Below the pieces are notes generated by a model, which did no database searches, was not told the DNA's origin, and saw only the letters and a program-made list of their open reading frames with translations. DNA of 47,961 bases from an uncultured Methanosarcinales archaeon (lineage in GTDB: Archaea; Nanobdellota; Nanobdellia; Woesearchaeales; CAZKBD01), in NCBI GenBank assembly GCA_964550945.1, contig CAZKBD010000005.1, forward strand, positions 1 to 47,961. Direction: 5' to 3'. Position numbers and translations under genes: made by a program. Shown here one piece after another: positions 18,390-46,443 of this stretch (positions within the stretch are counted from its first letter, which is position 1; each line of letters starts with the position of its first letter).

Positions 18390-18830
18390 ATGCAATTGCA
18401 GATGCAGGATGCAAAGCTTGGCAAAAATTGTATTTTTTGCAGAATCATCAAGGGAGAGATTCCATGCACCAAGGTTTATGAAGATGATAATCTGATTTCT
18501 TTTCTTGACATTGCTCCTGCAAATAAAGGCCATTGCCTTGTTATGCCCAAGAATCATTACGAAACTTTATTGGACGCACCTAACCTTGATTTGGCTTTAA
18601 TAATAAAAAAATCAAAGGAGATTGCAAGGGCAATGAGCTCTGCATTAGGAAACCAGGGCTTTAATCTTTTGGTCAATAATAAAAAAGAGGCTGGCCAGGT
18701 TGTGTCTCATGTTCATGTTCACCTTGTTCCTAGATTTGCTGGTGATGGGATATCATTCAATTGGAAGCCTAAGAAATATATGAATGATGAGATAGATGAA
18801 TTTGCAGATAAAATAAAAAGTTTTTTATAG
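18390..18830 (+). CDS. HIT-family hydrolase (intact HVHVH triad)
   Basis: CIFC and AGQVVSHVHVHLVPR. Confidence 0.93.
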   Translation: MQLQMQDAKLGKNCIFCRIIKGEIPCTKVYEDDNLISFLDIAPANKGHCLVMPKNHYETLLDAPNLDLALIIKKSKEIARAMSSALGNQGFNLLVNNKKEAGQVVSHVHVHLVPRFAGDGISFNWKPKKYMNDEIDEFADKIKSFL

Positions 18831-30062: not shown

Positions 30063-30989
30063 ATGAAAATCAAAAAGAGGACATTAAAGATTGTCTGCAT
30101 TTTCTTTGTACTAATCATAGCCTTTTTAATTATTTATCTTACAAACAAAAACAAAGAGATATACAAGTTCGAGGACAACAGTTTTTCCTATTCAAAAAAT
30201 AGGGGAGAGCTGGAATATAGCCTTTACCTTAAATCAAAGAATTCAACCTTTGACATATATTACCTAAACTTCAAAAGCAGGAATTTTCTGGATTATGAAG
30301 CCAAAATTTATGGCCTGGTTTTAATACCTAATGGCAAGAGCAATTTTCCAGGGCTGATCTTATTGCCTGGCGGCGCAGTAAAAAAGGAATCAGAATTAAA
30401 TTTAGCTGTAAAGATCGCAGAGATGGGCATTTGTGTTTTTACGTTTGATCAGAGAGGGATTGGAGAGACAGGAGGAATTTATCTAGGCTTAGAGCAGGAT
30501 TATGCTATTTTTTCTAAAGGCAATGAGCCTATACAGCATTTATCCGTCTTTGATGCTTTGAGGGCCTATGATGCCATCAAAAAGGTAGATGGGATAGATA
30601 AAAACAATATTGCGATTGCAGGTGAATCAATGGGTGGAAGGTATGCAATAATTGCAGCAGCAATCGAAAAAAGGCTTAAAGGAGTAATAGTCATCAGCTC
30701 ATCTGGATTTGATTTTAAAAATGATCCTTCGCTTCCTTATAACTCTTATCTGCTATCTGTTGATCCTGACAGCTATATCGGCAGGATTTCTCCAAATTAT
30801 GTTTTCATGCTGCAGGGAACAAATGATTCTGTGGTTACATTAGCTAACGCAGAAAATACATTTGGAAAAGCAGCAGAGCCAAAGAAATTTTTTACTGCAG
30901 ATGGCTGCGGGCATGGATATTGCGACAAGATGTATGATGGATTGAAAGAAGCATTTGATATAATTTACGGGCAATCAAAATTGACATAA
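30063..30989 (+). CDS. membrane-anchored alpha/beta hydrolase
   Basis: GESMGG nucleophile elbow; G.ND..V and GH; N-terminal TM. Confidence 0.88.
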   Translation: MKIKKRTLKIVCIFFVLIIAFLIIYLTNKNKEIYKFEDNSFSYSKNRGELEYSLYLKSKNSTFDIYYLNFKSRNFLDYEAKIYGLVLIPNGKSNFPGLILLPGGAVKKESELNLAVKIAEMGICVFTFDQRGIGETGGIYLGLEQDYAIFSKGNEPIQHLSVFDALRAYDAIKKVDGIDKNNIAIAGESMGGRYAIIAAAIEKRLKGVIVISSSGFDFKNDPSLPYNSYLLSVDPDSYIGRISPNYVFMLQGTNDSVVTLANAENTFGKAAEPKKFFTADGCGHGYCDKMYDGLKEAFDIIYGQSKLT

Positions 30990-31025: not shown

Positions 31026-32195
31026 ATGAAAATTGAGCCTTCAAAAAGAATAAAGTCAATAGGAAGCTATGCTTTTGCTGATGTAGACAATGAGGTTGCT
31101 AAGTTAAGAAAGCAAGGGATCACGCCTATAGATTTTGGAGTTGGCGATCCAAAAGACCCAACACCTGGTTTTATCAGGAATGACTGCAAAAGGGCAATCG
31201 ACAAAAGAAAGGATTCTGGATATCCAAGCTATATAGGCAGCTTGGAGTATAGAGAAGCAATTGCAAAATGGACTCAGAAAAGGTTTAAGATTACTTTAGA
31301 TGTTGAGAAGGAGATATGCTCTAATATTGGAGCAAAGGAAGCTGTTTTTAATTTTCATGAGGGATTTATCAATCCAGGGGATTGTGTATTAATCCCAAAT
31401 CCAGGCTATCCTCCTTATGAAAGAGGCACATTATTTGCAGAGGGCAAGCCTTATTTTTTAAATTTGGTTGCAGAGAATAAATTCTTGCCTGATCTGTCTT
31501 CTGTTCCAAAAGACATTGTTAAGAAATCAAAGCTGCTTTGGATCAACTATCCAAACAATCCGACAGGAGCAATGGCTACAAAGGAGTTTTTGAAAGAAGC
31601 GATTGATTTTGGCAGGGATAATGGCATAATAATCGGCAGTGATGAATGCTATAGTGAGATCTATTTTGAGGAAAAACCCTTGTCTATACTTGAATTAACC
31701 AGAGAGGGTGTTTTTGCAGTCCAGAGTTTGAGCAAAAGAAGCGCTATGACCTCTTACAGGGTTGGATGGCTTGCTGGCGATGAAAGCATAATATCTGTTT
31801 TTAAAAAGGTCAAGACAAATATTGACAGCGGAACTCCCCAATTCATTCAGGATGCTGCCATTGCAGCGCTTTCTGATGAAAAACATGTAGAAGAGTTTAG
31901 GTTTTCCTATAAGAAAAAGAGGAATGTAATATGCGATGCATTTAAATCAATTGGATTGAAGGATTGCAGGCCAGATGCGACTTTGTATATCTGGCAGAAG
32001 ATAAAATGCAGCTCAGTTGAATTTGCAAAAAAACTATTGCAAAAGCATGTTGCAATAGTAACTACTCCGGGCAATTGGATATCTACTGAATCTGATGGTG
32101 TAAACCCTGGAGAAGGATATGTCAGGCTGGCTTTAGTGCCTAGCATGGAAGAGTGCAAAAAGGCTGCTGAAAGGATAAGGAAGCTTAATCTGTAG
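31026..32195 (+). CDS. class I/II aminotransferase, probably LL-diaminopimelate aminotransferase (DapL/DapC-like)
   Basis: NYPNNPTG, DECY, SLSK...M..YRVG and KTNIDSG; dap gene context. Confidence 0.8.
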   Translation: MKIEPSKRIKSIGSYAFADVDNEVAKLRKQGITPIDFGVGDPKDPTPGFIRNDCKRAIDKRKDSGYPSYIGSLEYREAIAKWTQKRFKITLDVEKEICSNIGAKEAVFNFHEGFINPGDCVLIPNPGYPPYERGTLFAEGKPYFLNLVAENKFLPDLSSVPKDIVKKSKLLWINYPNNPTGAMATKEFLKEAIDFGRDNGIIIGSDECYSEIYFEEKPLSILELTREGVFAVQSLSKRSAMTSYRVGWLAGDESIISVFKKVKTNIDSGTPQFIQDAAIAALSDEKHVEEFRFSYKKKRNVICDAFKSIGLKDCRPDATLYIWQKIKCSSVEFAKKLLQKHVAIVTTPGNWISTESDGVNPGEGYVRLALVPSMEECKKAAERIRKLNL

Positions 32196-32452
32196 ATTTT
32201 GCCTTTTTTTCGTCACCACCTTGTTACATTTTCTCGTCGAAAAAATAACGAAAGCTATATAAATTAGCTATTTAATCTAAAATAAAACTTGGTTAGAGTG
32301 GTTAAAACGATAAACAAGAGTTTAGGGGGTTTGAAAGTCTTCTTTGATTATTTTGCGGAATGTAGTTTAAATAGTTCTATTGTGAAAAAAGAGAGATACA
32401 GTAATTTTAGATTTACAGGAAAATAAAAATAAAACGAATGGAGGGATTGAAG

Positions 32453-33589
32453 ATGGGAGAACAAAAATCTTTACACAGCATTTGTAGATGGACATTTAAT
32501 CCAGGCAAGGGGGGGTTTGTTCCTGCAGACCAAAGGCCAGAGTGGGGCAGCGGTTTTAGCACAGTGGATATGATCAGCCTAGTCAAAGAAAAAATCGCTC
32601 CAAGACTTCCTGATAATGTTGAACTTGGAGTAGAGATGCATTATGATACTGAGGTTAATGAGACGACAGCCCCAGCTGTTGCTAATGCTTTAGTTGATTC
32701 AGGGATACACTTAGCGATGATAACCCCTGGAGCTCATTCACACTGGGCATATGGGGGGATTACCTCATTAGATCCTGAAGAAAGGGCAGCCGCAGAAGAT
32801 TTTGGAAAAAGAACAGTGGATCTGGCGTATGGGCCTTTGAGAGCTGCTTGGCATCCTGATGCAGATAAAGCTCCTGCTCTTATTTTATGGAATGGCTCTT
32901 TTGGTTATGACCTGGCTACAATAGGGATTAGGCAAATGTACCAGAACCTAAAAGAAAGTGTTGCAGGATTGTGCAGGTATGAAGAGGGTTATGGCGGGGA
33001 GTTATATTTTGGATTTGAACCCAAGCCAAATGAAGGCCATCCTGCTATGTTGATACCGACAGTTGCGAGCGCATTGATTTTCTGGAGAAAACTTGAAGAC
33101 GAGTTTGGTGTTAGCAGGTCTCAGAAGGGTGTAAACAAAGAGTTTGGCCATTCAGAAATGATTGGGCTTGATCATGTATATGACACAGTGGAAGAATTAG
33201 ACAACAAAGCAATGGTCCATATGCACCTAAACAGCCAAGGTTATAATGACGGGATTGTATTAGGTGGCCCTTGCAAGTATGACATAGATCATGGCGCAAG
33301 AGTGAATGGCATGAATGTCGCAATTGCAGGCCTTATACAGGAAGCAGGCTTTAATCGCTGGAAAGGCCATGATATGCAGACAAGAGCATACGATAATGTA
33401 GATCAGGGTATTGATAGGGTAGTAAGAAGCGTAATAAGCTGGGAAGCTTGTGCAAAATCAGCTGGAGAGTTAGATACCCGCCAATTAATGGCTTATTTAG
33501 CTGGAAGGGAAACTGCAAAAGCAGAAGATATGATGAGGCACGCTGTTGTGAAAGCTCATCAGTATTTTGATCAGATGTATCAAGGTTAA
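32453..33589 (+). CDS. xylose-isomerase-family sugar isomerase
   Basis: FEPKPNEG, NKEFGH, HMHLN and D.D metal-ligand motifs. Confidence 0.8.
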   Translation: MGEQKSLHSICRWTFNPGKGGFVPADQRPEWGSGFSTVDMISLVKEKIAPRLPDNVELGVEMHYDTEVNETTAPAVANALVDSGIHLAMITPGAHSHWAYGGITSLDPEERAAAEDFGKRTVDLAYGPLRAAWHPDADKAPALILWNGSFGYDLATIGIRQMYQNLKESVAGLCRYEEGYGGELYFGFEPKPNEGHPAMLIPTVASALIFWRKLEDEFGVSRSQKGVNKEFGHSEMIGLDHVYDTVEELDNKAMVHMHLNSQGYNDGIVLGGPCKYDIDHGARVNGMNVAIAGLIQEAGFNRWKGHDMQTRAYDNVDQGIDRVVRSVISWEACAKSAGELDTRQLMAYLAGRETAKAEDMMRHAVVKAHQYFDQMYQG

Positions 33590-33670
33590 TTTTTTCCTTT
33601 TTTATTTTTTTAATTTAAAAAAGAGTGATACTATGAAGTATGCACTATAGGCAATTGAGGGTGATTGAAG

Positions 33671-34843
33671 ATGGAAATCAACATTAGACTAACTACAGAT
33701 CAAAATATGTTTACTACAGGCAGCCCTGTTGAATTAGGGAACTATGATGGACTTAGAGTTCTTGCAGGCAGCTATGATGGCCATGGGCTTCCATATTTAG
33801 ATGTCCAGAACAGTAGAGGGATGGTAAGGATATTAGCTAATCGGGGCCTTCAGGTATGGGGTGCTGAATTCGATGGCGAGAGATTAGGCATGGATTCATT
33901 GGTAAAGACGCCGCATCCTAAACCATTGGATCAGGAAGTTTCGTCAGATCCTGCAATAAGAACAAGGCAATATTTAGCTGATTATGGAGCGTATTCAGTT
34001 GGCTGTGGAGTAACTGTAATGGGATGCGCTGGCCCAGAAGACAACCACCCATTGCATGGCAATCTGCCATTGATGGGTTTTGAGTGCCCAGTTATATCGT
34101 GGGGAGAGGATAAATCTGGAAAGTTGGTAACTATAGCTGGATTTTCTCAGGAGGGGCTTAACGGATCAATGGACAGGGCATATATTGTTAAGAGGGAAGT
34201 TACCATTAATGACAAAACAGCCCTGATACACCTTGCAACAACTACATATAATAGGGGATTAGGTGATCTGGACTTTATGTTTTTAGAGCATATTAATCAT
34301 AGAAAAGTTGACGGCTCAAGAGTTATCTTCTATCCCGATCTACAAAATCTTAGGGTAAGGGAGCAGGATCCAGGGCATATATCTAGCTTAAGTCCAGCTG
34401 AGCAAATAGCTTACCAAGCATTAAAGAATGCTGCAAGAGAAAATCCGCAACAATTTATGCATGTTAATCTAGGCAGGCCTATTTTCCCTGAGCTAGTTTT
34501 CTATGGAGAGCAGCATGGAGATTACGCAATTGCAGCTCAAGTAAGAGCTGATGGATCTGCAGATATTACTGCATATGACCCAAGAGAGCTTAAACAGCTA
34601 GTAATCTGGATGAGGGATGCAACAGAAGAGCAAGCAGAAAGAGAAGGATTTGCAGTTACCAATTCGCTTGGCTTGCTTCCTGCAACTGGAAAGCCTGAAG
34701 GGTATTCTCAAGCTAAAAAGGATGGAGAGGTTGGAATCGTAAATCCTGATCAATCCAGAACTGCGAATATAGTATTGGGGCGATTAAACAGAGAGGAATT
34801 ACTAGTTACTATCCCTGATTTAGAGAAAAGGTTAAGGGCTTAA
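33671..34843 (+). CDS. aldose-1-epimerase-like protein (DUF4432-like)
   Basis: RGL.VW.A, GCG...G, HPLHG and H.N motifs. Confidence 0.7.
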   Translation: MEINIRLTTDQNMFTTGSPVELGNYDGLRVLAGSYDGHGLPYLDVQNSRGMVRILANRGLQVWGAEFDGERLGMDSLVKTPHPKPLDQEVSSDPAIRTRQYLADYGAYSVGCGVTVMGCAGPEDNHPLHGNLPLMGFECPVISWGEDKSGKLVTIAGFSQEGLNGSMDRAYIVKREVTINDKTALIHLATTTYNRGLGDLDFMFLEHINHRKVDGSRVIFYPDLQNLRVREQDPGHISSLSPAEQIAYQALKNAARENPQQFMHVNLGRPIFPELVFYGEQHGDYAIAAQVRADGSADITAYDPRELKQLVIWMRDATEEQAEREGFAVTNSLGLLPATGKPEGYSQAKKDGEVGIVNPDQSRTANIVLGRLNREELLVTIPDLEKRLRA

Positions 34844-34844
34844 A

Positions 34845-35945
34845 ATGTCATTAGAATTAGACCACCTTGATAGCGCAACAGGAGTAAGAGAATTAGGATT
34901 AGAAGGATTTGAAAAAGCAGGAGGCATTTGGAGATTAAGGAATAATGACGTTGAAATGCTTCTTTCTGCTTATGGCCTTGCTACTATAAGAGTGACTGTT
35001 CCTGACAGAAATGGCAGGCTAAAAAATATCGTATTAGGATATAGGTCTTTGGAAGAATATCAAAGAGACACAAGCTGTCAAGGCAGAATTGTTGTGCCTC
35101 ATGCAAACAGAATAGGTCCTGCTTCTTATAGAGATGATAAAACTGGAGAAACAGTTAATTTATTTGCGAATAATGGTAATTTTAATAATCTTCACAGTGG
35201 AGTATGCCCTGGTAGCATATGGATTCAAGGTATTAATAATGAGTGGCATATTAAACACCAAACAAGAACAGGGCTTGAGTTTGGTCTAGAGTTTGTGGAT
35301 GGCCATGGGGGTTTTCCTGGGCCTATACATTGCAATGCGTTGGTCGGGCTTTCAGATAATGGCACTGCTTCAAAAAGAATTACTCAATGGAGTGAAAGTT
35401 ATGTAGGCGTGCCTTTAGATGCAACTGACCACACTTATTTTAATCCGCATGGAGTGGATTTAGGCAGAACTGTCCATGATCTTTTGTTCAGGACAAATGC
35501 TACTATGTATGTTGAAGTAGATGGACATAAGATTCCATTGCCAGAAAATGCATTAGTATCAGTTGATGGCACAAGGTATGATTTTCGTGAAGAAAGGCAC
35601 ATTGGTAACCAACCCTATTTTGGAAAAGATGGATATGATGTTCGTTTAGTAGCTCCAGACGGACATCCTATTGAAGCGACTCTTGTCTCTAGATTTAGCG
35701 GGATAGGGATTGAATGCACATCAGACAGAAGAACAGCCCAATTTTATACTGCAAGCGCAATGTCTCACAAATCAACAGAGCCTGCAGGAAGATTTAGCGC
35801 TGTGTGCATAGAGCCAGGTAAAATAACCAATGGCCCAAATAATCCTAACCTTTGCGCTTTGCTAGGAGTTAATCCTGTATTGTACAGAAAAGGCGATGCT
35901 CCAGATGTTGTTACAATCAATTATAGGTTTTTTGTTGATAAATGA
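34845..35945 (+). CDS. aldose 1-epimerase (GalM-like mutarotase)
   Basis: VPDRNG...NIVLGY, ANRI, LHSG, GFPG, HTYFN, QFYT and C.E motifs. Confidence 0.85.
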   Translation: MSLELDHLDSATGVRELGLEGFEKAGGIWRLRNNDVEMLLSAYGLATIRVTVPDRNGRLKNIVLGYRSLEEYQRDTSCQGRIVVPHANRIGPASYRDDKTGETVNLFANNGNFNNLHSGVCPGSIWIQGINNEWHIKHQTRTGLEFGLEFVDGHGGFPGPIHCNALVGLSDNGTASKRITQWSESYVGVPLDATDHTYFNPHGVDLGRTVHDLLFRTNATMYVEVDGHKIPLPENALVSVDGTRYDFREERHIGNQPYFGKDGYDVRLVAPDGHPIEATLVSRFSGIGIECTSDRRTAQFYTASAMSHKSTEPAGRFSAVCIEPGKITNGPNNPNLCALLGVNPVLYRKGDAPDVVTINYRFFVDK

Positions 35946-35973
35946 TTAATGGAAAATATTGGAGGCAATAAAA

Positions 35974-36885
35974 ATGACAGAACAAAGATTTATTTCAGCA
36001 GCTAATGATTATCAAGAGATGGTTGTTAAGCCTTGGTTAGAGGCAAATCATGATGCATATGGGCCAGGACAACAGGGGTTTGTCCATGATTTAAGTGATC
36101 CAACTCATGTTAGAGCTCTAACAACTAAAGGATTGGATATTAAAATCGGAGAGGATGGATTAATGTGTACCTATCTTCCATTTGGTTTACAAGGTATGAT
36201 TATGATCAATTCCGGAAGTTTTTATCATAATGTTGCTAAAGCAGCCGAAGGTGGAGAAGCAAGGGTTGAATCTGTTTTAAAAGGCAATGCTCAGGCTTAT
36301 GATTATGTATCATTAGCTGATAAAGTTTTTGCTAAAGATTGTCCGGTTTTAGTAGATATTGTTGGCTCATCTCCAGCACAGGTCGGAGCTACTCTTGTAC
36401 ATGGCAATGCAAAATATTCTTTTCAATTGATTGAGTATCATCCTTCTTCTAATGAAGGCATGATTGCTATGTATGTGCCTGCTTTTGCTTTTGTAACTCC
36501 CAGTTATTATTGGGAGCGCAATACTCCTCATGTTGATGTAAGGGATGGAGCATTAGTTATGATTCCAGAGGGAAAGATGGCTGTACTTGGTTCAGATGCA
36601 GGTCATCTATTCCCAGTAGGATATGGTATAGCTGGAATATTGCTTGCTTCTGGAACAGGCCAAGAGCAATTCCAGACAAGGTATGAACAAGATATGCACC
36701 GTCAAAATGGAGGCCAGCCAGTGCATAACAAATTACTTTTAGCTGTTGATGAGATCAGGGCAGCTGAAAACACCAAAGGAGTTATTGTTGGCGATTCAAA
36801 ATCAGCGCAAGGAACCATGGAAGAACTAGTAAGACAATTCCAACTACAACAATCAAGTTTAGTGGATATCTTAGAAGGAAGATGA
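35974..36885 (+). CDS. hypothetical protein, possibly divergent class II aldolase (RhaD-like)
   Basis: Weak resemblance (SGSFYHNV, IPEG, AE near C-terminus) plus operon context. Confidence 0.4.
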   Translation: MTEQRFISAANDYQEMVVKPWLEANHDAYGPGQQGFVHDLSDPTHVRALTTKGLDIKIGEDGLMCTYLPFGLQGMIMINSGSFYHNVAKAAEGGEARVESVLKGNAQAYDYVSLADKVFAKDCPVLVDIVGSSPAQVGATLVHGNAKYSFQLIEYHPSSNEGMIAMYVPAFAFVTPSYYWERNTPHVDVRDGALVMIPEGKMAVLGSDAGHLFPVGYGIAGILLASGTGQEQFQTRYEQDMHRQNGGQPVHNKLLLAVDEIRAAENTKGVIVGDSKSAQGTMEELVRQFQLQQSSLVDILEGR

Positions 36886-36921
36886 TTATAATATCGCTGT
36901 TTGATGTTAATGGAGGGGAAA

Positions 36922-38529
36922 ATGCGAACAATCATAGTACCAGTAGATGGCGCAACTCATATCAAGCTTGAAGTTTTGAATCTAGAAACATTAGTAACAG
37001 TTGCTTCAGAAATGACTGGAACTCCCACTACACAAGTAGATGGATTTGCATATAACTGCACTGCTGAAGAATTTGCGTGGTTTGATCAACAAATTAAAGC
37101 ATTGCCTGCTGAACTAAGAAGTGCAGCAGTTGTTGCTCCTGTTGCACGAGGCGCTTCAGGTGGACTGGTTGGATGTGATAATAGGCTGATTGAGGGTCCA
37201 GATGGCGGCCTAACATTATCATACGATCATCATTATCCGGAAAGAGTTGAACAACAGTTTAGGCATTTAGCTGGCAGTGAAGCAGAATTCTACGCACAGA
37301 CAGGATCTATGTTAAGCTATCCTGGAAGCTTGACTTTAGCCAAGAGGATGTTATTTGAACAGATGGAAAGGTTGCCTTTGCTCAAACGATCTGGAGGTTT
37401 TGGAGGATATGGAACCTTAATGGCAGGCCATTTCTTAAGCGATGATTTTGTCAGAGCTGTCAAGTTGGCAGGCAACGAGCATAGCTATTGGATGTGCCAT
37501 GCAGGTGCCAGGGATATTACAAAAAAACCAGGAACTCCAAGCAAATTGGTTATTAAGCTTGGACAGATGGGTGGCGAGGAAGGAATGTTTGAACATGGTT
37601 TATTCTGGAATTTTGTTCCAAAAGAAGCGGCTGTTTGTTATAGATCTATTGGAGAAATGCCACGACCTCAAGCTGAGTATCTTACGCTCATAACAATGCC
37701 CCTTATTGTTCCAGGTGCGCATGATACTTGCGTATCCCATATTCCTCTGGTGTCAACATTTTATCAAGCATTTCCTGAAATGAAAGGAAAACCTATAGTG
37801 CATGTTGATGGTGGTACATGGACAATGACTGCTCAGTTAGGTGTTAGGACAGCAGTCCTTCCTGAAAACGGTTATGAACATGGCATTATGTGCCAAGGAA
37901 GTGTTGATGGAGAGCCAGTTGTTACAGGAATGTATAGGGGTGGAACAGATTTTAATTATCTGCAAAGTAGGATCCGAGAAAGATATGGGGGTGCTAGACC
38001 TGAATTCAATGAATCTGCATTAGAACAATCATTAATAGGCCTAAATTGTTTTGTACTTCCAAACTTAACAAAAGAAAGCCAAGGATCAGGACCATTTCCA
38101 AATGTTAATGGAAAAATTCTCAATGAAGAAGAATTCTTTAGTGATCCAGGCAAAGCATTTGTTTATGCAAACTTAATGACTGCTTCAGTTACAGCTTATC
38201 ATGTTGATGAAATAGCTTCAGAAGGAGCACCAATAGTGCTTTCAGCAGGCGCTTCCAAAGATCCATATTTTGGAAGATTGTTAGCGACAATGACTGGAAG
38301 AAAGGTTTATGCAATGTATGATAAAGATGGAAATCCAATAAATGAAACAACAACTTTGGGAATGGGTATTGTCGGCAAAGCAGCTTTGTTAAATTGCCAT
38401 CCTTATGATGTTGATGTTAGCAGTTTAGGAGTTCAATATAAAGAGCTCCAACCATTTACTGGAAGAATCGGTGAGAAGATTAGCCAATATAGGAGCATAT
38501 TAATGGAAAAGATAGTTGAGGCAAACTAA
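36922..38529 (+). CDS. FGGY-family sugar kinase (rhamnulo/fuculokinase-like)
   Basis: VDG...K, GAHDT, DGGTW, G...P and ETTTLG motifs. Confidence 0.7.
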   Translation: MRTIIVPVDGATHIKLEVLNLETLVTVASEMTGTPTTQVDGFAYNCTAEEFAWFDQQIKALPAELRSAAVVAPVARGASGGLVGCDNRLIEGPDGGLTLSYDHHYPERVEQQFRHLAGSEAEFYAQTGSMLSYPGSLTLAKRMLFEQMERLPLLKRSGGFGGYGTLMAGHFLSDDFVRAVKLAGNEHSYWMCHAGARDITKKPGTPSKLVIKLGQMGGEEGMFEHGLFWNFVPKEAAVCYRSIGEMPRPQAEYLTLITMPLIVPGAHDTCVSHIPLVSTFYQAFPEMKGKPIVHVDGGTWTMTAQLGVRTAVLPENGYEHGIMCQGSVDGEPVVTGMYRGGTDFNYLQSRIRERYGGARPEFNESALEQSLIGLNCFVLPNLTKESQGSGPFPNVNGKILNEEEFFSDPGKAFVYANLMTASVTAYHVDEIASEGAPIVLSAGASKDPYFGRLLATMTGRKVYAMYDKDGNPINETTTLGMGIVGKAALLNCHPYDVDVSSLGVQYKELQPFTGRIGEKISQYRSILMEKIVEAN

Positions 38530-38546
38530 ATTAGCAGGAGGTTAAA

Positions 38547-40148
38547 ATGGCAAGATTATCATTTGGCTATGATGCGAGTTCAACTGGCCATAAATTAGTA
38601 GCATTGGATATTGACGCGAGAGAAATAATCGCTACATACCAATTAGATATGAGGGAACTGGCTTCTGAATTCGGTTTTCAAACAACAGAAGAAGGGATGG
38701 TCCAAGGAGCTAATGAAGGAGAGTATTCTTTTCCAGGCCATATCCTTGCTGAGGGATTAGAAAGGGTAATGTTGAAAGCAGCTAGAGACGATTCTTTCAA
38801 AAATGAAGATGTTGTGGCAATGTCATTTTCTGTGCAAGGCCACCTAACAGCTTACCTCATTGGCGATCTTATGCAGACCGCAATTACTGGAGGAGATACC
38901 AGGCCTTTAAGAGAACTGGTTGAGCCATACTTAACATGTGAATGCCCTACTTGGAAAAACTCATCAACAAAGCAACAATCAGCAACCTTAAATGGATTAA
39001 TGAAAGAACGTGGTTTGAATGTAATAACAATGGCAGAGCGCTACCCTGGTTCACAAATTTCTAAAAGAGTAGGCACTGAAGCATATCAAAATGCAACCTC
39101 CATAATGGTAGGCAATGCGTTATTTCCTTTTTTTGTTACAGGAGTTCCAACTTTCTCTGGGCCAGGAGATGCAGCAGCTTCAGGATTTGTGGATTTAAGC
39201 ACTCTTAGATTAGATGAGAGAGCAATGAAAATTATTGCACCAGATTTGCATGAAAAGGTTAAAGAAGTAACTCCTGCAGGCTCTTTAATTGGAAGAGCAA
39301 CAGAGCGTTTTAGGCAGATGGGGTTTACAAATTTGAATGTTTACACCTCTGATCAGGATAATATTAAATCATCAGCATATCTTATCTTTGATCCAGGCCA
39401 TATAATGCCAGTTAGCTTGGCAACCAGTTATACAGCAAGCCCTTATTCTAAGTTCCCTATACCTGGTTTTGAAGGAAATTTTGGGAGCAATCACCCGGAT
39501 TATCCATATATGCCGCTGCTTTGCAAGAATAATGGCTCTACAAGTTTGGTAAGCCTTTTAGACGAGTGGGGATGGAACTCAAAAGATTTTGAAAGGATAT
39601 CCAAGGCTTTACAAGCCACTAAGCCTGGAAATGATGGCGCAATGGCTTTGCCATGGTTCCAGCCAGAGATAGTGCCTTATGCACCAGATGCGCATGGAGT
39701 CATACTTCATGAAACCTATGGTGAAAGATTGTTCGCTAAGGATATGAGGGCGGCTGTTGAAGCCAATGCAGCATCAATGAAAAATTGGAGCGATCATTAC
39801 TTTGGAGACATAATCCCTGGATTGAATGGCATTGCATTTGCAGGAGGCACAACAAACAATTTAGATGTTCTTCAAGTATGGACTAATATGTTTGGTGTGA
39901 AAGGATATTGCTTACAACATGCGCAAAATGCAGCAGCAGTTGGCGCAGCTTTGACAGCAGCAGCAGATTATCTAAGCCATCAGCCAGACAGTCCCCAGAT
40001 TAATTTAAGCCATGTTGTGGCTAGCTTTATTCAGGCTAATCCAGCTGAAAGGGTTATTGAACCAGATAGAGATGCCTCAGCATTTTATAGAGAGGTATTC
40101 AGGCCAGCATATGCACAATTTGAAGCGCAACATTCACAGAAAAGATAA
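38547..40148 (+). CDS. FGGY-family kinase, xylulokinase-like
   Basis: GYDASSTG.K, SVQGH, W..SST..Q, ERYPGSQI, DN, SLATS and GGT..N. Confidence 0.8.
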   Translation: MARLSFGYDASSTGHKLVALDIDAREIIATYQLDMRELASEFGFQTTEEGMVQGANEGEYSFPGHILAEGLERVMLKAARDDSFKNEDVVAMSFSVQGHLTAYLIGDLMQTAITGGDTRPLRELVEPYLTCECPTWKNSSTKQQSATLNGLMKERGLNVITMAERYPGSQISKRVGTEAYQNATSIMVGNALFPFFVTGVPTFSGPGDAAASGFVDLSTLRLDERAMKIIAPDLHEKVKEVTPAGSLIGRATERFRQMGFTNLNVYTSDQDNIKSSAYLIFDPGHIMPVSLATSYTASPYSKFPIPGFEGNFGSNHPDYPYMPLLCKNNGSTSLVSLLDEWGWNSKDFERISKALQATKPGNDGAMALPWFQPEIVPYAPDAHGVILHETYGERLFAKDMRAAVEANAASMKNWSDHYFGDIIPGLNGIAFAGGTTNNLDVLQVWTNMFGVKGYCLQHAQNAAAVGAALTAAADYLSHQPDSPQINLSHVVASFIQANPAERVIEPDRDASAFYREVFRPAYAQFEAQHSQKR

Positions 40149-40163
40149 TTGGAGGCATTGAAA

Positions 40164-41207
40164 ATGCTAAAACTAAACACGTTTTTAAGAAAACAAGATG
40201 AAGCTCATAAGATCTTAGCGAGAGCGTTGCCAGCATTTGCCGAATCGATTGACCCAAGAACAATTGAAGTTGCAGATTTTTCCTTGACAAATCCAGAATA
40301 TCGGGTTGGACGGATTAGAGTTGGACAGATTAGAGAATCAGTTCCATTTGATCAAGGGACAATTAACAGAGTGGGTTTAGAGCTTGTGGTAATCGCAAAT
40401 GTTGCCAGCAGGCAAGTATTACAAGCTCATGATGATGTTCCAGCGCTTAAATCAGGCGGTTATTGCGGAAAATACCTCATATGGACTCCAAACCAATATC
40501 TTCCAATGCATTCTCATGAGCCAACAATTATTCTGCCAAATTCTGAAGATATCCCAAAAGCTATCTTAGAAAAATTGGTTGATTTAAAACAGAGAAATCC
40601 TGATTTTGAAAAAGCAGATGAAAGGCCTGGATTTTCTTTAGACAACTTCAGTTATTATGTTCCGGTAAATAGGCTAAGCAGGGATGATTTAGCAAGGATA
40701 CATGACTATGCAGCAAAACATGGAGGAGAAATTGTTTATGGCAAGGGTGAGACATTTACTGTGCTTCATGGCGGTGGATGGCTTATAGCGCCAAGCATTA
40801 ACCGTGCTGTCTGCGAATCTAGGTATTATGAAAGGCCAATTAGCGATTTTGGCATGGATCAGAGAATACCATCTACAGAATTAGAAATAATGGCTCAACA
40901 AGGTTATGAACTATACAAAGGAGGTCGTCAAATCTCCCGTGAATCCATAATTGCTATTGAGATGAATGTAGGACGTTCTTATGAGATACCTCCTGGGCAT
41001 CCTCATGCTGTTTTGGCTGGGCCTAATGGAAATGTATCAGCAGAAAGCTCTGCGCCTAGTTTTGATCCAGGAGATATATTTTTTGATGGAGCGATACAAA
41101 GAGCAACAAAGATTGCAGTGCCTCTTCTTGATGGCTCTGGAAGCTTTAAGGTAGTTTTAGCAACAGACTACTTTAGAGAGATGGGTTATCGCGTTTCAAG
41201 AGGATAA
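40164..41207 (+). CDS. D-lyxose ketol-isomerase-like cupin with insertions
   Basis: DF.L, GYCGKYL....Q..PMHSH, K.ETF and H...AGP.G..E.S. Confidence 0.7.
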   Translation: MLKLNTFLRKQDEAHKILARALPAFAESIDPRTIEVADFSLTNPEYRVGRIRVGQIRESVPFDQGTINRVGLELVVIANVASRQVLQAHDDVPALKSGGYCGKYLIWTPNQYLPMHSHEPTIILPNSEDIPKAILEKLVDLKQRNPDFEKADERPGFSLDNFSYYVPVNRLSRDDLARIHDYAAKHGGEIVYGKGETFTVLHGGGWLIAPSINRAVCESRYYERPISDFGMDQRIPSTELEIMAQQGYELYKGGRQISRESIIAIEMNVGRSYEIPPGHPHAVLAGPNGNVSAESSAPSFDPGDIFFDGAIQRATKIAVPLLDGSGSFKVVLATDYFREMGYRVSRG

Positions 41208-41228
41208 AATAAATTGGAGGACGGGAAA

Positions 41229-42254
41229 ATGACAAAAGCTTTATTCATTCCATCAGCATTCGCTGATGAAGCTGTTAGAGATAGAAGAATCGCTGATCTT
41301 GAGCAGCAATTGGATGCAGTTGCTGGCCAGGGATTATTATATTATACTGCAAGAGCATTTAATTTTAGCGGAATACCCGGAGAAAACGTAAATGTGACTG
41401 GTTTAAATCCTGATCAATTGGATGGGATTGTAAAACTCAACAAAAAATATGGCATGAGAGTTGCAACTCTAGGAACGCCTATTGGAAAAGCTGGCTTAGT
41501 TGAAGGACGACCAGCAAAAGCAGATTACAAAAGCCCAGAGCAAGTAAGAGTACAGCTTGAAGGTGCATTTAGGGCTGGTGATAAATTAGATTGCAGGCTT
41601 ATAAGGGGATTTTCTTTTTATCCTCCTGATGGGGCTAAAGAGGCTAAAGAGGGAGAATTTTATTCCCTAGCTTTTAAGAGATTATGGGAAGAAATAGTTG
41701 TACCTTGCAAAAATCATGGTTTTCTTTTTGGAATCGAGCCTGAGCCTGGATTAACTGCAGCTGATGGAGCCACTTTGAATAAGCTAGTAAGCGAGTTACC
41801 CAGCAAAAATGTTGTCGGCATTTATGATGGGGCTAATCTCCATGTTGCAGGATTAGATGGAGTGCATGAGTATTTTGCAATGAGGGGTGTTCTTGGCTGG
41901 TTCCATATTAAAGATTATAATCAGCCTTGTCCAGGCGGCAGGACAGTAGATGAGGAAGCGCTTAAGCATTTCTGCCCTGCTGATAGAGGATTAGTGGGCC
42001 ATCAGGCAATAATGGATGATTTTGCTTCAAGGCAAGTTGAAACTTATGAGAAACTGAGGGCTTTTGGTATTCCAGGCATTCCAGCAGATGTTGAAGGCCA
42101 TATTGATGGCGGTGGATTATTTGGAGGATTCTCAAATCCAGTTGGCTTTGGAATGGCAGTAAGGGGTTTGTTAAACGTGCTGGACAGAGCAGGCATCAAA
42201 TACGAGTTAAGAGATCACGACCAGATGGTTTCGTTCCAGCAGTATTGCCAATGA
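41229..42254 (+). CDS. sugar phosphate isomerase/epimerase (xylose-isomerase-like TIM barrel)
   Basis: SAFADE, GTPIGK, IRGFSFY, D.AN, HIKD and E.H...GG.FGGFS. Confidence 0.8.
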   Translation: MTKALFIPSAFADEAVRDRRIADLEQQLDAVAGQGLLYYTARAFNFSGIPGENVNVTGLNPDQLDGIVKLNKKYGMRVATLGTPIGKAGLVEGRPAKADYKSPEQVRVQLEGAFRAGDKLDCRLIRGFSFYPPDGAKEAKEGEFYSLAFKRLWEEIVVPCKNHGFLFGIEPEPGLTAADGATLNKLVSELPSKNVVGIYDGANLHVAGLDGVHEYFAMRGVLGWFHIKDYNQPCPGGRTVDEEALKHFCPADRGLVGHQAIMDDFASRQVETYEKLRAFGIPGIPADVEGHIDGGGLFGGFSNPVGFGMAVRGLLNVLDRAGIKYELRDHDQMVSFQQYCQ

Positions 42255-42390
42255 TTATTTTTTCCATCACCTTTATAAGCTGAACAATATTTTCAACCGA
42301 TGAAAAGAGGTTCTGGTATTTATAATAAATGAGATGATGGAATAGGAAGAGGAATAGTGGTTTCATAATACTGAACAAGGAGGATAAAAA

Positions 42391-43659
42391 ATGTCAGCAT
42401 CTTTATACAGAAGAATAAAAGCGTTAGTTGAATTGAACCATCAAAAGTATACTCCAAAAACGGCAATTCAATATCTAAAGGGAAATACTGGCCAAGAAGT
42501 TGATTTTCTTAGCGCAGGGGTATTGGTTCTTGATGTTGGGCAGTCAGTTCAAGTCCCAGGGGTCGAGATTAAGGAAGGGGAGCTTAGCGTCCCAGCAGAC
42601 GAGATTATTAAAAACAGGCCAACATTAACAGTTGAGCAGCTGGCTTCTTCAGAGTTTGGAGGCTGTGGAAATGTAGTATTGCCAGCAGCAGCTTTAGGCA
42701 TAAGAACAGGAGTTATGGGATTTACTGGTCAGGATGTAGAGGGCAATTATTTTCGTAAGAGTATGGAACAGTATGGAGTCACTACTTCAGGGATGATTGT
42801 AGACGCCATGCACAGAAGCGATGTTTCTATAAAAATTCAGGTTGAAGACCGCACTAAAAGAGAGCCATTGGTATTTTGCGAAGATGCTGGAAAATACTTT
42901 CATTTTGGGAGTGCTCAGGCAAAAGAAAGATTAATCGCACTCAATCCAAAAAGTGTTCAAATAAGCTATTCTGGATTATTTGAGAATGGAGCAGATTGTG
43001 GCGGGGGGGATTTGCTTGCAAATGACATTAGATGGATTAAAAAAACTCTAGATTCATTAGTGATGGTTGATACCCATACATATGCTGGAGATCAAAAAAG
43101 GTATGACTGCTTAAGGCCATCTTTAGAAGTTGCGGATATGTTTGTCTGCTCTGATGATGAAGTGGAGCTGATGATTCCACAATACAAACTCTCATCAGGA
43201 AATACTAGAGCAGAGAAGAGGCAAGCATTTTTTAATTTTTTAAAAGATAACTATTGCAAAGAAAATGAAGCAAGATTTTACGCAGTAACATCTCCAGAAG
43301 AGGCAGTTGTCTTATACTACAAGCCAAATGGAGAATCAGTGCAGGTTACAGTTGAGAATTGGTTCACAACAAATAACGGAGAGATATTTACAACAACAGG
43401 CGCAGGAGACTCATGGAGAGCAGGATTAAACGCTTATATATTAAATCATGAGCAGGAGTTTAAGTCAGGAAGATTAAATGTTGAAGAAGCAGTGCAGTTT
43501 GCAAATCTTACTGCTAGATTATATATTTCTGGCTCAAGGACAACTGCGTTTAAAAGCTATCAATATACTGATCTATTAAGGTTAGCTTCTGGACAAAAAC
43601 CAACAGAAGATTTGAGGCCATTGACAGCTGTGTACAAAGCATTGGACAGAGCGGCTTAG
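42391..43659 (+). CDS. PfkB-family carbohydrate kinase
   Basis: GGCGNV, G.D..G, TTGAGDSWRAG and FAN motifs. Confidence 0.88.
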   Translation: MSASLYRRIKALVELNHQKYTPKTAIQYLKGNTGQEVDFLSAGVLVLDVGQSVQVPGVEIKEGELSVPADEIIKNRPTLTVEQLASSEFGGCGNVVLPAAALGIRTGVMGFTGQDVEGNYFRKSMEQYGVTTSGMIVDAMHRSDVSIKIQVEDRTKREPLVFCEDAGKYFHFGSAQAKERLIALNPKSVQISYSGLFENGADCGGGDLLANDIRWIKKTLDSLVMVDTHTYAGDQKRYDCLRPSLEVADMFVCSDDEVELMIPQYKLSSGNTRAEKRQAFFNFLKDNYCKENEARFYAVTSPEEAVVLYYKPNGESVQVTVENWFTTNNGEIFTTTGAGDSWRAGLNAYILNHEQEFKSGRLNVEEAVQFANLTARLYISGSRTTAFKSYQYTDLLRLASGQKPTEDLRPLTAVYKALDRAA

Positions 43660-43669
43660 CCAATTTAAC

Positions 43670-44599
43670 ATGTATACTCAACCAACTCTTGAGGCAGCAG
43701 TATCTATAGGAATCAGTGAAAGAAAATTAAGGCATCATGGATTTTTGTTTGATGAAGTTAAATGGAGACAACATCTTGATTCTTTAGAGAACAGGTTTCC
43801 TGGCGAGAAATCACTTATAGATGAAGCGAGAGCTGCAGATTATAACCGAGTAGTTCCGCTTTATCTTGACCGCTTAGTTGAAAGGGATTACAGCAAGCTG
43901 AAAAAAGCAGGAATATTGGCAGCAGGCGCAGCAGGCCTGTATGCGCTGTCTGCATTAATGCCAGAAACAACAGAAGCTGCAAAACAATTTTATTCCCATT
44001 ATTTGTCAGAGAATGGGACATTGTCAACCGTTGTTACTAATTCATTGACTATGCTGGCATTCTATGGCGTTGGGGATGGGTTAGCTCAATGGATTGAGGG
44101 AAGGGGATTTGATGCAAGAAGATTTTCAAGAACAGTCAAGCTTGCTGCAGTCTATGGTGCAGAATTTACAGGAGTCTATTCATTAATAGGCAAAGCCACT
44201 TCTGCAATAGGCAAAGTATATGAGCTAGGCAGCCTGGCAACTGCTTTTGTCATGAGCGTAATGGATGTTCCAGGCTATGGGGTGAATATATTCAATCCAA
44301 GGCATGTTTACTTAATGACAAAACAAGGAAAGATTAATCTGTTGGATTATATCAGGATTGATAAGTTTTATGCAAACCTCTTCAAAGATAAATCATTCAG
44401 AAGAAAATGGTGGAATGTTACTAAAGTAGCGCCTGCATGGCTGGCTTACCAAACTTGGAATAGATCTACTAATCCGGAATCAGATTGGGTATTCTGGGTT
44501 GCTTTAGCTGCAGTGCCTTTTGCAGTTTACCTCTCTCTAGTCTCAAATGAAAAAAAAGAATTAAGACAATTGCAGGATGTGATGGCGAAGTTAACCTAA
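43670..44599 (+). CDS. membrane protein, Mpv17/PMP22-like
   Basis: T......GVGD.LAQ..E...FD.RR; several TM segments. Confidence 0.5.
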   Translation: MYTQPTLEAAVSIGISERKLRHHGFLFDEVKWRQHLDSLENRFPGEKSLIDEARAADYNRVVPLYLDRLVERDYSKLKKAGILAAGAAGLYALSALMPETTEAAKQFYSHYLSENGTLSTVVTNSLTMLAFYGVGDGLAQWIEGRGFDARRFSRTVKLAAVYGAEFTGVYSLIGKATSAIGKVYELGSLATAFVMSVMDVPGYGVNIFNPRHVYLMTKQGKINLLDYIRIDKFYANLFKDKSFRRKWWNVTKVAPAWLAYQTWNRSTNPESDWVFWVALAAVPFAVYLSLVSNEKKELRQLQDVMAKLT

Positions 44600-44633
44600 A
44601 CCTTTATAAATAACTGATTATTATTTCTGCTAA

Positions 44634-44978
44634 ATGAGTAAAAAGAAGGAAGAGCAGGCAAGGCAGGAAGAACTTCAAGAGCAGATTTCTAGAATCAAAT
44701 TGCCAAGAGGAAGGCAGACATTTGGGGTTCTTGAGTTGAGAGTCGGGGGCTCAAGGATGAAAGTAAGATGCCTTGATGGGAAAAATAGGATTTGCAGGAT
44801 ACCAGGAAGATTAAAAAGAAAGTTATGGGTTAGGGAAGGAGATATTATTATTGTAGAGCCATGGGAGTACTCAGGAGACGAGAAAGGGGATATATTATAT
44901 AAATATACTAAAACTCAGGTTAATTTCCTAAAAAACAGGGGCCATCTAAAACAGATAGAAGAGTTTGAAGAGTTCTGA
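44634..44978 (+). CDS. eif1a: translation initiation factor aIF-1A
   Basis: C.DGK.R.CRIPGRLKRKLWVREGD.IIV.PW. Confidence 0.96.
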   Translation: MSKKKEEQARQEELQEQISRIKLPRGRQTFGVLELRVGGSRMKVRCLDGKNRICRIPGRLKRKLWVREGDIIIVEPWEYSGDEKGDILYKYTKTQVNFLKNRGHLKQIEEFEEF

Positions 44979-45071: not shown

Positions 45072-45596
45072 ATGGGGGGTAGTAGAACAGGTTCACTTAT
45101 TGTAATGGATATAATCCTGCTAATTGCTTTTATTGGCTTGATTATGGTTATTTTTGACCTTAAGAGGTTTTTCTTTATCGGCGAATTGATTTTATTTGGA
45201 GTTATCCTTCTCTTCACATTTATTGCTATGGTTGCTGCTTACCTTGAAGCTAGGTTTGGGTGGGTATTGCTCTCAATTATCTCAGCGGTTATATTGCTGG
45301 ATGTCATCTTTATTTATTTCAAATCTGTGATGTCAAGCAGCATGTTCTTCCTGCTGGTGATATTAGGCGTGGTTGGATTTATAATCTCAGTAGTGAATAT
45401 GGGCAGGGAAGAGGCTGAGCCTGAGATTGAAGAAGTGTTTGAGCCAGGAAAGTTTATTGGCAGCACTACTGGAAGAAGCTATCACGCGCCAAAGTGTGAC
45501 TGGGCAAACAATATCAAGAAGGAAAATCAAGTATGGTTTGATAGCGAAGAAGAAGCAAAGAAAAAAGGGTATAAGGCTCATTCATGCCTTAAATGA
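45072..45596 (+). CDS. 4-TM protein with C-terminal Ada-like metal-binding domain
   Basis: GS...YH...C.W...I...N...F...EEA...GY..H.C. Confidence 0.7.
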   Translation: MGGSRTGSLIVMDIILLIAFIGLIMVIFDLKRFFFIGELILFGVILLFTFIAMVAAYLEARFGWVLLSIISAVILLDVIFIYFKSVMSSSMFFLLVILGVVGFIISVVNMGREEAEPEIEEVFEPGKFIGSTTGRSYHAPKCDWANNIKKENQVWFDSEEEAKKKGYKAHSCLK

Positions 45597-46046
45597 TTCT
45601 GTTCTCCAGAGATAGATTATCATCAATATTGCTCCTATTGAGACAGCGCTGTCTGCTACATTAAAAGCAGGCCATATCCTGAAATCGAGAAAATCAATTA
45701 CATAACCCAGCCTGATCCTATCAATAAGATTCCCAATTGCGCCGCCTAAGATGAGGCCTACTGAATAATGGACTATTGCCTTGTTCTTTAGCTTGTCGTA
45801 ATAAAAAAGCACTGCGCCAATTATCATCAGAGCAACAAATATGAGCAATGTATTTTTTCCTTTTAAAATGCCAAAGCCTGCGCCTGTGTTATGGATGTAA
45901 GTCAGATGGAATATATTGCTGATTATTGGAACGCTTTTGCCAAGATATCTTACCACTAAAAATTTTGAGAACTGGTCAAGAACAATGATCAGGCAAGCAA
46001 GGCCAAATATCCTTAATGCCTTACCAGCTTCTTCTTCTTTCTTCAT
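45582..46046 (-). CDS. lspA: lipoprotein signal peptidase II
   Basis: DQFSK, NTGAGFG, GAIGNLIDR, VIDF and FNVAD motifs. Confidence 0.93.
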   Translation of the reverse strand: MKKEEEAGKALRIFGLACLIIVLDQFSKFLVVRYLGKSVPIISNIFHLTYIHNTGAGFGILKGKNTLLIFVALMIIGAVLFYYDKLKNKAIVHYSVGLILGGAIGNLIDRIRLGYVIDFLDFRIWPAFNVADSAVSIGAILMIIYLWRTESFKA

Positions 46047-46443
46047 GCTCTCCACTGGCTATCCTTTCCAGATGAGCTAATCTCTGGTTTATGCTTTCTA
46101 TTCCGGCTCTTAAAGCATCCAATTTGCTTGACAGAACTTCAATGTTTTTGGATACAATATAATCATTAGTTGACTGCTGCGGCTGTTGTAATGGCTGCAT
46201 TGGCTGATGAAATTGCTGCATCTGCTGCAATGGCTGCTGCTGCATGAAGCTTGGCTGCTCAAAGCTTGGCCTTGAAGGCTCTTCAAAAGAGCCTGGAAAT
46301 CCTGGGCCAATATCAGTAGCTCCAAGTCCTAAATCACGCTCTCTGCCTAAACCAGCATCCATGCCAAAAGGCTTAGGGCCCTCAGGTATCATAAAATCGT
46401 CTTCTTTCTTTTTCCAGAACATCACTTTATCAAAAAAAGCCAC
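46021..46443 (-). CDS. hypothetical protein, Pro/Gln-rich with C-terminal coiled coil
   Basis: GTG start with GGAG; low-complexity middle region. Confidence 0.7.
   Translation of the reverse strand: MAFFDKVMFWKKKEDDFMIPEGPKPFGMDAGLGRERDLGLGATDIGPGFPGSFEEPSRPSFEQPSFMQQQPLQQMQQFHQPMQPLQQPQQSTNDYIVSKNIEVLSSKLDALRAGIESINQRLAHLERIASGEHEERRRSW

Follow-up and report, generated by a model that had tools for sequence, protein, structure and literature searches.

Organization of the cassette

The window analysed here is a 47,961-nt stretch of DNA, contig C5 of a 1.97 Mb, 92% complete genome (G000) from an archaeon that probably belongs to the order Woesearchaeales, as indirect signs such as an atlas neighbour cluster and the many small-genome families of that order suggest; all searches of the host genome reported below as negative apply to this one assembly. 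Positions 32453-44599 of the window carry ten genes for sugar conversion, hereafter called the cassette, numbered 1 to 10 in coordinate order. As a first-pass annotation of this DNA had described, the ten open reading frames (ORFs) are co-oriented on the + strand; successive genes are separated by 81, 1, 28, 36, 17, 15, 21, 136 and 10 bases. Profile matches for genes 1 to 10 were to AP_endonuc_2/xylA_Arthro, DUF4432, Aldose_epim, none, FGGY_C_2, FGGY_C/XylB, Lyx_isomer, AP_endonuc_2, PfkB and none, in agreement with the families first read from the sequence. No ATP-binding cassette (ABC) or major facilitator superfamily (MFS) transporter and no regulator was found inside the cassette, as had also been claimed. 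The description of the operon as divergent holds for its sequence but not for its layout, as both flanking genes are on the same strand. Upstream is a run of lysine genes (dapB-dapA-lysA-dapL-like) that ends with the dapL-like aminotransferase gene, and downstream is the gene for archaeal aIF-1A, which scores above its cut-off and provides archaeal context.

A candidate archaeal promoter consisting of a purine-rich stretch and a TATA-like box lies upstream of gene 1 (32247..32262, + strand), and a run of seven T residues at 32204 follows the upstream aminotransferase gene. Pattern matching identified TATA-like boxes at 32255, 42271 and 44602, as well as T-runs after genes 1 and 8; these T-runs and boxes suggest more than one transcript. 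Scans for sigma-70 promoters and hairpin terminators gave results at chance level. Strong GGAGG-type ribosome-binding sites precede 8 of the 10 cassette genes compared to 84 of 1143 ORFs of at least 200 amino acids (aa) genome-wide. With respect to G+A+R+P content, 8 of the 10 genes exceed the 94th percentile of the genome (1143 ORFs), and GC content at third codon positions is host-like or lower. The cassette looks foreign in protein composition, yet adapted in its codon third positions.

The cassette is part of the archaeal genome

Read depth was even across the cassette and its flanks in two groundwater runs from one study, which may represent the source sample. Independent contigs from the same runs bridged both borders (32060-33145 and 43793-44686) with no differing letters. 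A chimeric assembly with bacterial DNA, a prospect raised by the first-pass annotation, is largely refuted by these results. Comparison of gene 1 with 78 orthologous loci gave a mean identity of 0.26 at fourfold sites and a maximum overall identity of 0.74; the fourfold-site value indicates that the cassette DNA is not that of a planctomycete. All frames are open and catalytic motifs are intact. From these data we conclude that the ten genes are real and are part of the archaeal genome.

Gene 1 encodes a non-canonical xylose-isomerase-family protein

Gene 1 (32453..33589, + strand) encodes a 378-aa protein of the xylose isomerase family that is probably a D-xylose isomerase. It scored 70 bits against TIGR02631 (cut-off 447) and gave no match to TIGR02630 at E<=0.1. 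Among species genomes 450 matches were confirmed. The best 80 of these 450 are 73-82% identical to gene 1 and come mostly from Planctomycetota, with some from Atribacterota and Bacillota. In 57 of the 80 loci a XylB-like kinase gene lies no more than 1 kb away; of the 23 without one, 7 have <500 bases of upstream sequence. The kinase beside a gene 1 ortholog scored 317 bits on TIGR01312 (cut-off 380), and xylose-ABC-like and ROK regulator genes were found at some of the bacterial loci. None of 25 bacterial genomes carrying gene 1 orthologs contained a XylA above the TIGR02630 or TIGR02631 cut-off.

Gene 1 was aligned with Thermus XylA at residues that we take to have catalytic or metal-binding roles in the latter protein. 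W15, H53, W136, E180, K182, E216, H219, D254, D256 and D286 are kept, D244 is replaced by His and E140 by Phe, and D56 is not kept in register. Apart from the D244 and E140 changes, the site resembles that of a class I XylA.

A search of 60 relatives of the host did not identify gene 1. A stand-alone copy with 78% identity (L020:2128-3255) occurs on a contig labelled Methanosarcinales; 7 other of the 14 ORFs on this contig match G000 proteins, and the label may be wrong. Gene 1 grouped with the L020 and L063 copies in quick trees (SH-aLRT 88-91; the second tree used 25 of 79 rows and was unrooted). A test of the window and L020 as one clade gave a p-AU of 0.55. A second xylose-isomerase-like family of 344 aa was observed in Phycisphaerae (L110:214-2496 and L113:1486-2520); in L110 it lies beside a PfkB kinase gene whose product is 32% identical to the PfkB of the window.

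Kinases of the cassette

Gene 6 (38547..40148, + strand) encodes an FGGY kinase that resembles a eukaryote-type D-xylulokinase. Its profile matched human xylulose kinase (XYLB; PDB 4BC2) over residues 3-522 with an E-value of 7e-44, the next match having an E-value of 4.5e-8, whereas its score against bacterial XylB (TIGR01312) was 55.9 bits, below the cut-off of 380. The likeness to the human protein is full length but distant, and lies at the profile level. Gene 6 differs from the bacterial partner kinase of the gene 1 orthologs. Gene 6 was matched in 3 of 300 further genomes from the order, in 1 of 400 genomes in a phylum sample and on one independent metagenome contig (L096). Its orthologs in G074, G118 and L096 are 47-50% identical.

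Gene 5 (36922..38529, + strand) encodes the other FGGY kinase, which belongs to a 3H6E/fuculokinase-like clade and matches PF21546 above the cut-off. The best PDB match of its profile was 3H6E (E 2.5e-37), followed by FucK 4C23 (E 1.4e-10). This kinase is rare, with 67 representatives of which the best is 58% identical; one named relative comes from Lentisphaerae, and no plasmid match was found. The PfkB-family sugar kinase encoded by gene 9 (42391..43659, + strand; PF00294, E 1.9e-19) has an intact GAGD motif, is 58% identical to the G074-type copy and has no specific PDB match.

Isomerase, mutarotase and orphan genes

Gene 7 (40164..41207, + strand) encodes a D-lyxose-isomerase-like cupin with long insertions. 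It scored 19.2 bits against PF07385 (cut-off 20.8), and its PDB matches, 7NZO (E 3e-5) and 2Y0O (E 7e-5), are both lyxose isomerases. The His-x-His, Glu and His cupin metal motifs are also present. The protein appears to resemble the short D-lyxose isomerases. Gene 8 (41229..42254, + strand; PF01261) encodes an AP_endonuc_2 TIM-barrel sugar isomerase/epimerase from an uncharacterised Planctomycetota-rich family, with 1280 relatives at E<=1e-30 among 8000 scored. Its PDB matches, AsbF (the best) and D-tagatose 3-epimerase, are weak. ORFs read by eye at two Planctomycetota loci of this family included no sugar neighbours. Elsewhere in G000, a Gfo/Idh/MocA oxidoreductase gene and an AP_endonuc_2 TIM-barrel gene lie directly after ilvD (C74:3618-6162; L163).

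Gene 2 (33671..34843, + strand) encodes a DUF4432 mutarotase, above the Pfam cut-off, that resembles the deoxyribose mutarotase DeoM. It aligned over its full length, motifs included, with a gene of the Escherichia coli deoKPM operon (E 2e-24). Matches were found in 65 plasmid records, and the 25 listed are 25-29% identical. The loci of two plasmid relatives are kinase-permease-mutarotase operons with DeoR, one of which also contains deoC; we presume that the mutarotases of such operons are DeoM. The name is taken from published work (PMC3899980). Neither the DeoP permease nor the DeoC aldolase had a match in G000. Gene 3 (34845..35945, + strand) encodes a GalM-type aldose 1-epimerase (PF01263, E 2.6e-28) in which both His motifs and the Glu motif are present.

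Gene 4 (35974..36885, + strand) encodes an orphan soluble protein of 303 aa with no assigned family; it was its own sole match among 1298 candidates. A cupin fold is a lead only: the best atlas comparison was to a cupin PGI (0.79), and the PDB search returned chance matches. A likeness to DUF4867/cupin noticed by eye gave an hhalign E-value of 0.045 and was not significant; among unrelated proteins 6 of 206, and among shuffled sequences 8 of 153, reached a score as high. The single-sequence fold had a pLDDT of 32, too low to use. Ureidoglycolate lyase references were found in none of five genomes.

Gene 10 encodes a probable Mpv17-like membrane protein

Gene 10 (43670..44599, + strand) is the only membrane protein gene of the cassette and encodes a probable member of the Mpv17/PMP22 superfamily. 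It had no Pfam match of its own at E<=0.1, and only 3 matches, itself included, were found among 4997 candidates. Gene 10 lacks an N-terminal region of ~115 aa that its three relatives carry. One of the four members of the family matched PF04117 (E 0.06). A profile built from 4 PF04117-matching proteins ranked gene 10 first in the proteome with an E-value of 0.009, which became 0.29 when 6 rows were used. hhalign gave 84% with a 7-row set that included one row found by gene 10 itself, and atlas leads to Mpv17 were 0.78-0.85. The model was of low confidence (pLDDT 42), and the best fold-search Z of 5.6 is uninformative. These profile results argue with moderate strength for a link between gene 10 and small archaeal PF04117-matching proteins.

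Proteins of 204-253 aa that resemble Mpv17/PMP22 were observed in several genomes of the order (L133, L135, L137, L139 and L094). One exceeds the Pfam cut-off, and they apparently lie outside sugar-catabolic loci.

The cassette is a mosaic with variable relatives

Six cassette loci were compared: that of the window, those of four genomes of the same order (G074, G118, G064 and G139) and that of metagenome contig L096. Two further loci (L095 and L097), ~100% identical to G074, were left out as non-independent. The cassette genomes are kin and hence not independent of one another, and the core was compared without a rooted tree. The G074 cassette contains genes for a protein without assigned function, a fucose/arabinose isomerase, GalM, a DUF4432 protein, a kinase, a TIM barrel, a lyxose isomerase, PfkB and an Mpv17-like protein. 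In G118 the order is another xylose-isomerase-like gene, GalM, DUF6786, a GalK-like gene, a FucK-like kinase, an enolase-family gene, an unassigned gene, a kinase, a TIM barrel, Gfo, PfkB and an Mpv17-like gene. The smaller cassettes comprise a xylose-isomerase-like gene, a kinase and a lyxose isomerase (G064), Gfo, TIM, FGGY, TIM, Gfo and PfkB genes (G139), and an isomerase fragment, a kinase and an oxidoreductase (L096).

Three cassettes share a core of GalM, kinase, TIM barrel, PfkB and membrane protein genes. Relatives of gene 3 are present in G074 and G118, relatives of gene 8 in G074, G118 and G139, and a gene 10-type gene ends 3 of the 6 cassettes (window, G074 and G118). In the slots for the isomerase, the second mutarotase and the second kinase, the cassettes carry unrelated genes, namely three clades of xylose-isomerase-like genes, two types of lyxose isomerase (gene 7 is not orthologous to those of G074 and G064), a fucose/arabinose isomerase, and differing second mutarotases and kinases. 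That sister cassettes fill the same slots with unrelated genes suggests selection for function. The first gene of the G074 cassette (L086:7212-8705) encodes a 497-aa protein of no Pfam family, which may have a peptidase M24-type fold.

Within the window the genes of the cassette differ in their closest relatives and ages. Apart from a generic GalM gene at 11 loci, none of the other nine cassette genes was found near the bacterial gene 1 orthologs. We conclude that the cassette is a mosaic and not one transferred operon. The first-pass annotation had its content right and missed both its mosaic nature and its variable relatives within the order.

Downstream metabolism of the host

G000 encodes a split transketolase (N and C parts), RPE and RpiB, along with a pair each of class II aldolases and phosphofructokinases (PFKs). 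The transketolase for which a search had been suggested is therefore present, but no match to transaldolase, the other enzyme suggested, was found in G000. A strong transketolase match was also obtained in all 4 of the other cassette genomes tested. The PFK and class II aldolase genes form two adjacent pairs (C4:43093-45753 and C15:14106-16318), and both PFKs carry an Asp/Lys pair that we take to be the signature of pyrophosphate specificity. Genes for lysine, tryptophan and leucine/isoleucine/valine synthesis were also identified, as was a pyruvate-ferredoxin-oxidoreductase-like gene. Metabolism in the host is reduced to a lesser degree than was supposed from the usual state of DPANN archaea: this genome of 1.97 Mb carries these biosynthetic genes as well as PFKs and class II aldolases, two of each. 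PFK is reported to be rare in DPANN (PMC8407392).

No sugar transporter was recognised in G000: XylF, XylH, GalP and FucP had no match, and one MFS protein of unassigned substrate was found. None of 6 genomes had a match to a CUT2 ABC permease, and none of the 5 cassette genomes to a sodium-solute symporter. Three glycosidase queries gave no match in G000. PF00596, a class II aldolase family, likewise had no match there, and a control matched in 11 of 14 cases.

Proposed function of the cassette

The most probable reading is that the cassette was acquired and repeatedly restocked, and that it acts as a broad isomerase-kinase funnel that salvages free monosaccharides, chiefly pentoses along with rare sugars, leading them to xylulose-5-phosphate and into the pentose phosphate pathway. 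The two mutarotases (genes 2 and 3) would keep anomers in equilibrium. Several aldoses would become ketoses through the action of the xylose-isomerase-like and lyxose-isomerase-like enzymes, perhaps together with the TIM-barrel epimerase. D-xylulose would be trapped by the gene 6 kinase in the form of xylulose-5-phosphate, and different pentoses or pentuloses by the kinases of genes 5 and 9. The products would enter the non-oxidative pentose phosphate route of the host via the split transketolase, RPE and RpiB. This pathway may close without transaldolase by means of the pyrophosphate-type PFK and class II aldolase, yielding fermentable triose phosphate and precursors for biosynthesis in the host. 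Such a sedoheptulose-1,7-bisphosphate bypass has been shown in cellulolytic clostridia, which are described as sharing the pyrophosphate-type PFK and aldolase and the lack of transaldolase (PMC7029132); in G000 it is suggested by gene content. Gene families, motifs, mosaic ancestry, recurrence and downstream genes are observed; all substrates, the flux, the bypass and uptake are predictions. A multi-substrate isomerase-kinase route in a DPANN-type archaeon, as first suggested, is upheld, with xylose/xylulose and lyxose as the best candidate substrates. Cleavage of the rhamnose/fucose type, also suggested, is weakened by the lack of a PF00596 match.

Several observations weigh against the proposed funnel. 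By both cut-offs gene 1 falls far outside the curated XylA classes I and II, and His replaces a metal-ligand Asp (D244). A second xylose-isomerase-like gene scoring ~200 bits is present in 7 of the 25 bacterial genomes and could be their real xylose isomerase. The L020 gene stands alone in a genome with no FGGY_C match and a weak transketolase match. With neither DeoC nor PF00596 matched in G000, deoxyribose-5-phosphate and methylpentulose-1-phosphate would have no known outlet, and the lack of a recognised sugar transporter and of a glycosidase match leaves the sugar supply unexplained. Transketolase is reported to be common in DPANN, where bacterial-derived copies are known (PMC8407392), and hence does not set the cassette genomes apart.

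A biosynthetic role is possible, if somewhat unlikely. The cassette would then work more for synthesis than for energy: amino acids, riboflavin and nucleotides would draw on its ribose-5-phosphate, ribulose-5-phosphate and erythrose-4-phosphate, and this would explain the placement of sugar genes next to those for amino acids. The cassettes of G074, G118 and L096 lie just upstream of asd, with a homoserine-dehydrogenase-like gene (identified by motif reading) on the opposite side, and that of the window follows dapB-dapA-lysA-dapL. Two more small sugar units of G000 adjoin leu/ilv genes. One is the C74 pair; the other, beside leuA/ilv (C34:13928-17588; L162:5929-9589, - strand), encodes a ribulokinase over its NCBIfam cut-off and a 628-aa protein whose match to a fucose-isomerase C domain is weak. 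The rpe gene is inside a trp-like run. However, different genes flank the cassettes of G139 and G064, a single old insertion may account for the shared position, and G000 also contains PFK, aldolase and the pyruvate-ferredoxin-oxidoreductase-like gene. A biosynthetic role is compatible with the pentose funnel.

The absence of a recognised transporter bears on a more specific version of the funnel, which we regard as unlikely. Free sugars would enter through a prokaryotic Mpv17/PXMP2-type pore formed by gene 10 and be trapped immediately by phosphorylation in an order-specific modular funnel. Its first enzyme, encoded by gene 1, would be of an undescribed third type among xylose isomerases and would also stand in for XylA in many Planctomycetota and Atribacterota. 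Pxmp2 is reported to form a 1.4-nm diffusion pore (PMC2662417). Gene 10 shares with the Mpv17/PMP22 family motif and profile likeness via the small archaeal PF04117-matching proteins, but its family is prokaryotic, has an extra N-terminal region and is tied to sugar genes. Against an open pore, A/V-type ATPase genes (motif and by-eye reading) are present in G000, so a pore would need gating. In addition, three cassettes are without a gene 10-type gene, and the shorter relatives lie outside sugar loci as judged from neighbours read by eye. If this version is true, the Mpv17 family would gain its first function in prokaryotes, together with a model in which it is readily studied. In any case, whether this family, familiar from organelles and from human disease, has a role in prokaryotes can be tested directly with gene 10.

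Oxidation-elimination pathways that use Gfo/Idh/MocA enzymes on glycosides or inositols are known. That the TIM-barrel protein works with Gfo/Idh/MocA in such a route, so that part of the cassette would liberate sugars and not isomerise them, seems distinctly improbable. Gfo/Idh/MocA genes do adjoin the TIM-barrel gene in G118, G139 and a Haladaptatus relative, the best PDB match of gene 8 is the dehydratase-like AsbF, and C74 carries a separate Gfo and TIM pair. However, there is no Gfo gene in the cassette of the window or in that of G074, and the PDB matches are weak and include a ketose 3-epimerase.

We give little credence to the idea that the whole cassette forms one route devoted to just one sugar of a rare, deoxy or branched type, such as rhamnose/fucose, apiose or deoxyribose. 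Gene 5 is nearest to 3H6E and FucK, gene 2 is DeoM-like, and the orphan might be an aldolase or isomerase that escaped recognition. The link of the cassette to apiose is a weak PDB match to 3KTC (E 3.6e-4), which we take to be an apiose isomerase. Opposed to these points are the differing closest relatives of the genes, the exchange of most members among sister cassettes and the lack of a PF00596 or DeoC match. Finally, a chimeric assembly or decaying foreign island, for which the atypical amino acid composition, the orphan, the lyxose isomerase insertions and the shortened last gene could be cited, can largely be dismissed on the basis of even depth, bridged borders, open frames, intact motifs, fourfold sites unlike those of planctomycete loci and orthologs in other families of the order.

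Relation to known pentose pathways

The pentose funnel favoured here would work like a bacterial pentose operon, yet the cassette is a member of none, having a non-canonical isomerase, a eukaryote-type kinase, modular content and no regulator or known transporter. Orthologs of gene 1 occur in xylAB-like pairs and relatives of gene 2 in deoKPM-like operons. Compared with the bacterial xylAB(FGH)R and deoK-deoP-deoM operons, the cassette took single genes only, without the bacterial kinase, transporters or regulators.

The first-pass annotation, which regarded isomerase-kinase routes as typically bacterial, missed that such routes have been reported or predicted in other archaea. The xylose isomerase/xylulokinase route of Halorhabdus has been characterised (Sutter et al. 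2020, PMC8551123). According to the available text, it shares with the cassette a bacterial-type isomerase-kinase conversion of pentose to xylulose-5-phosphate in an archaeon, clustered genes and a lateral origin, but has a class II XylA, one cluster per sugar and a transaldolase. The cassette instead has an isomerase below both class cut-offs, a eukaryote-type kinase, genes for many sugars in one mosaic and no transaldolase match. A 2023 statement held the route to be absent from archaea other than Halorhabdus (PMC10443357). XylA and XylB have also been predicted in Brockarchaeota and Caldarchaeales (PMC8065059, PMC10547907), which share a xylose isomerase pathway in uncultured or enriched archaea. 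These are TACK archaea, the Brockarchaeota being rich in glycosidases, and the available text of these papers describes no mosaic cassette or membrane partner.

Pentose use via the non-oxidative pathway has been proposed for Woesearchaeota (PMC11606122). A literature search joining Woesearchaeota with xylose isomerase, xylulokinase or transketolase plus xylose found nothing; its scope left aside supplements and most subscription papers, and a supplementary annotation may exist. Among papers on DPANN and xylose isomerase whose text was searched, none described such a cassette.

A small number of archaea with small genomes in this order, gene 6 being matched in 3 of the 300 relatives sampled, appear to have assembled a broad pentose salvage from the parts of several donors. 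This capacity bears on the host independence of such cells. The cassette also offers testable enzymes, including an archaeal clade of eukaryote-type xylulokinase, and the gene 1 family, which lies outside both XylA classes and has ~450 matches, may be of use in xylose fermentation.

Other features of the window

Two genes upstream of the cassette (30063-30989), the window encodes an alpha/beta hydrolase with an N-terminal hydrophobic anchor, for which the best Pfam match was acetyl xylan esterase AXE1 (E 3.8e-10). This archaeal contig also carries three HIT-family genes and lspA, a gene for a lipoprotein signal peptidase of bacterial type (over the TIGR00077 cut-off), at 11197-12431, 18390-18830 and 45582-46055. 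In all four runs, a short repeat-like element near the contig end (47520-47870) showed high depth together with numerous joints.

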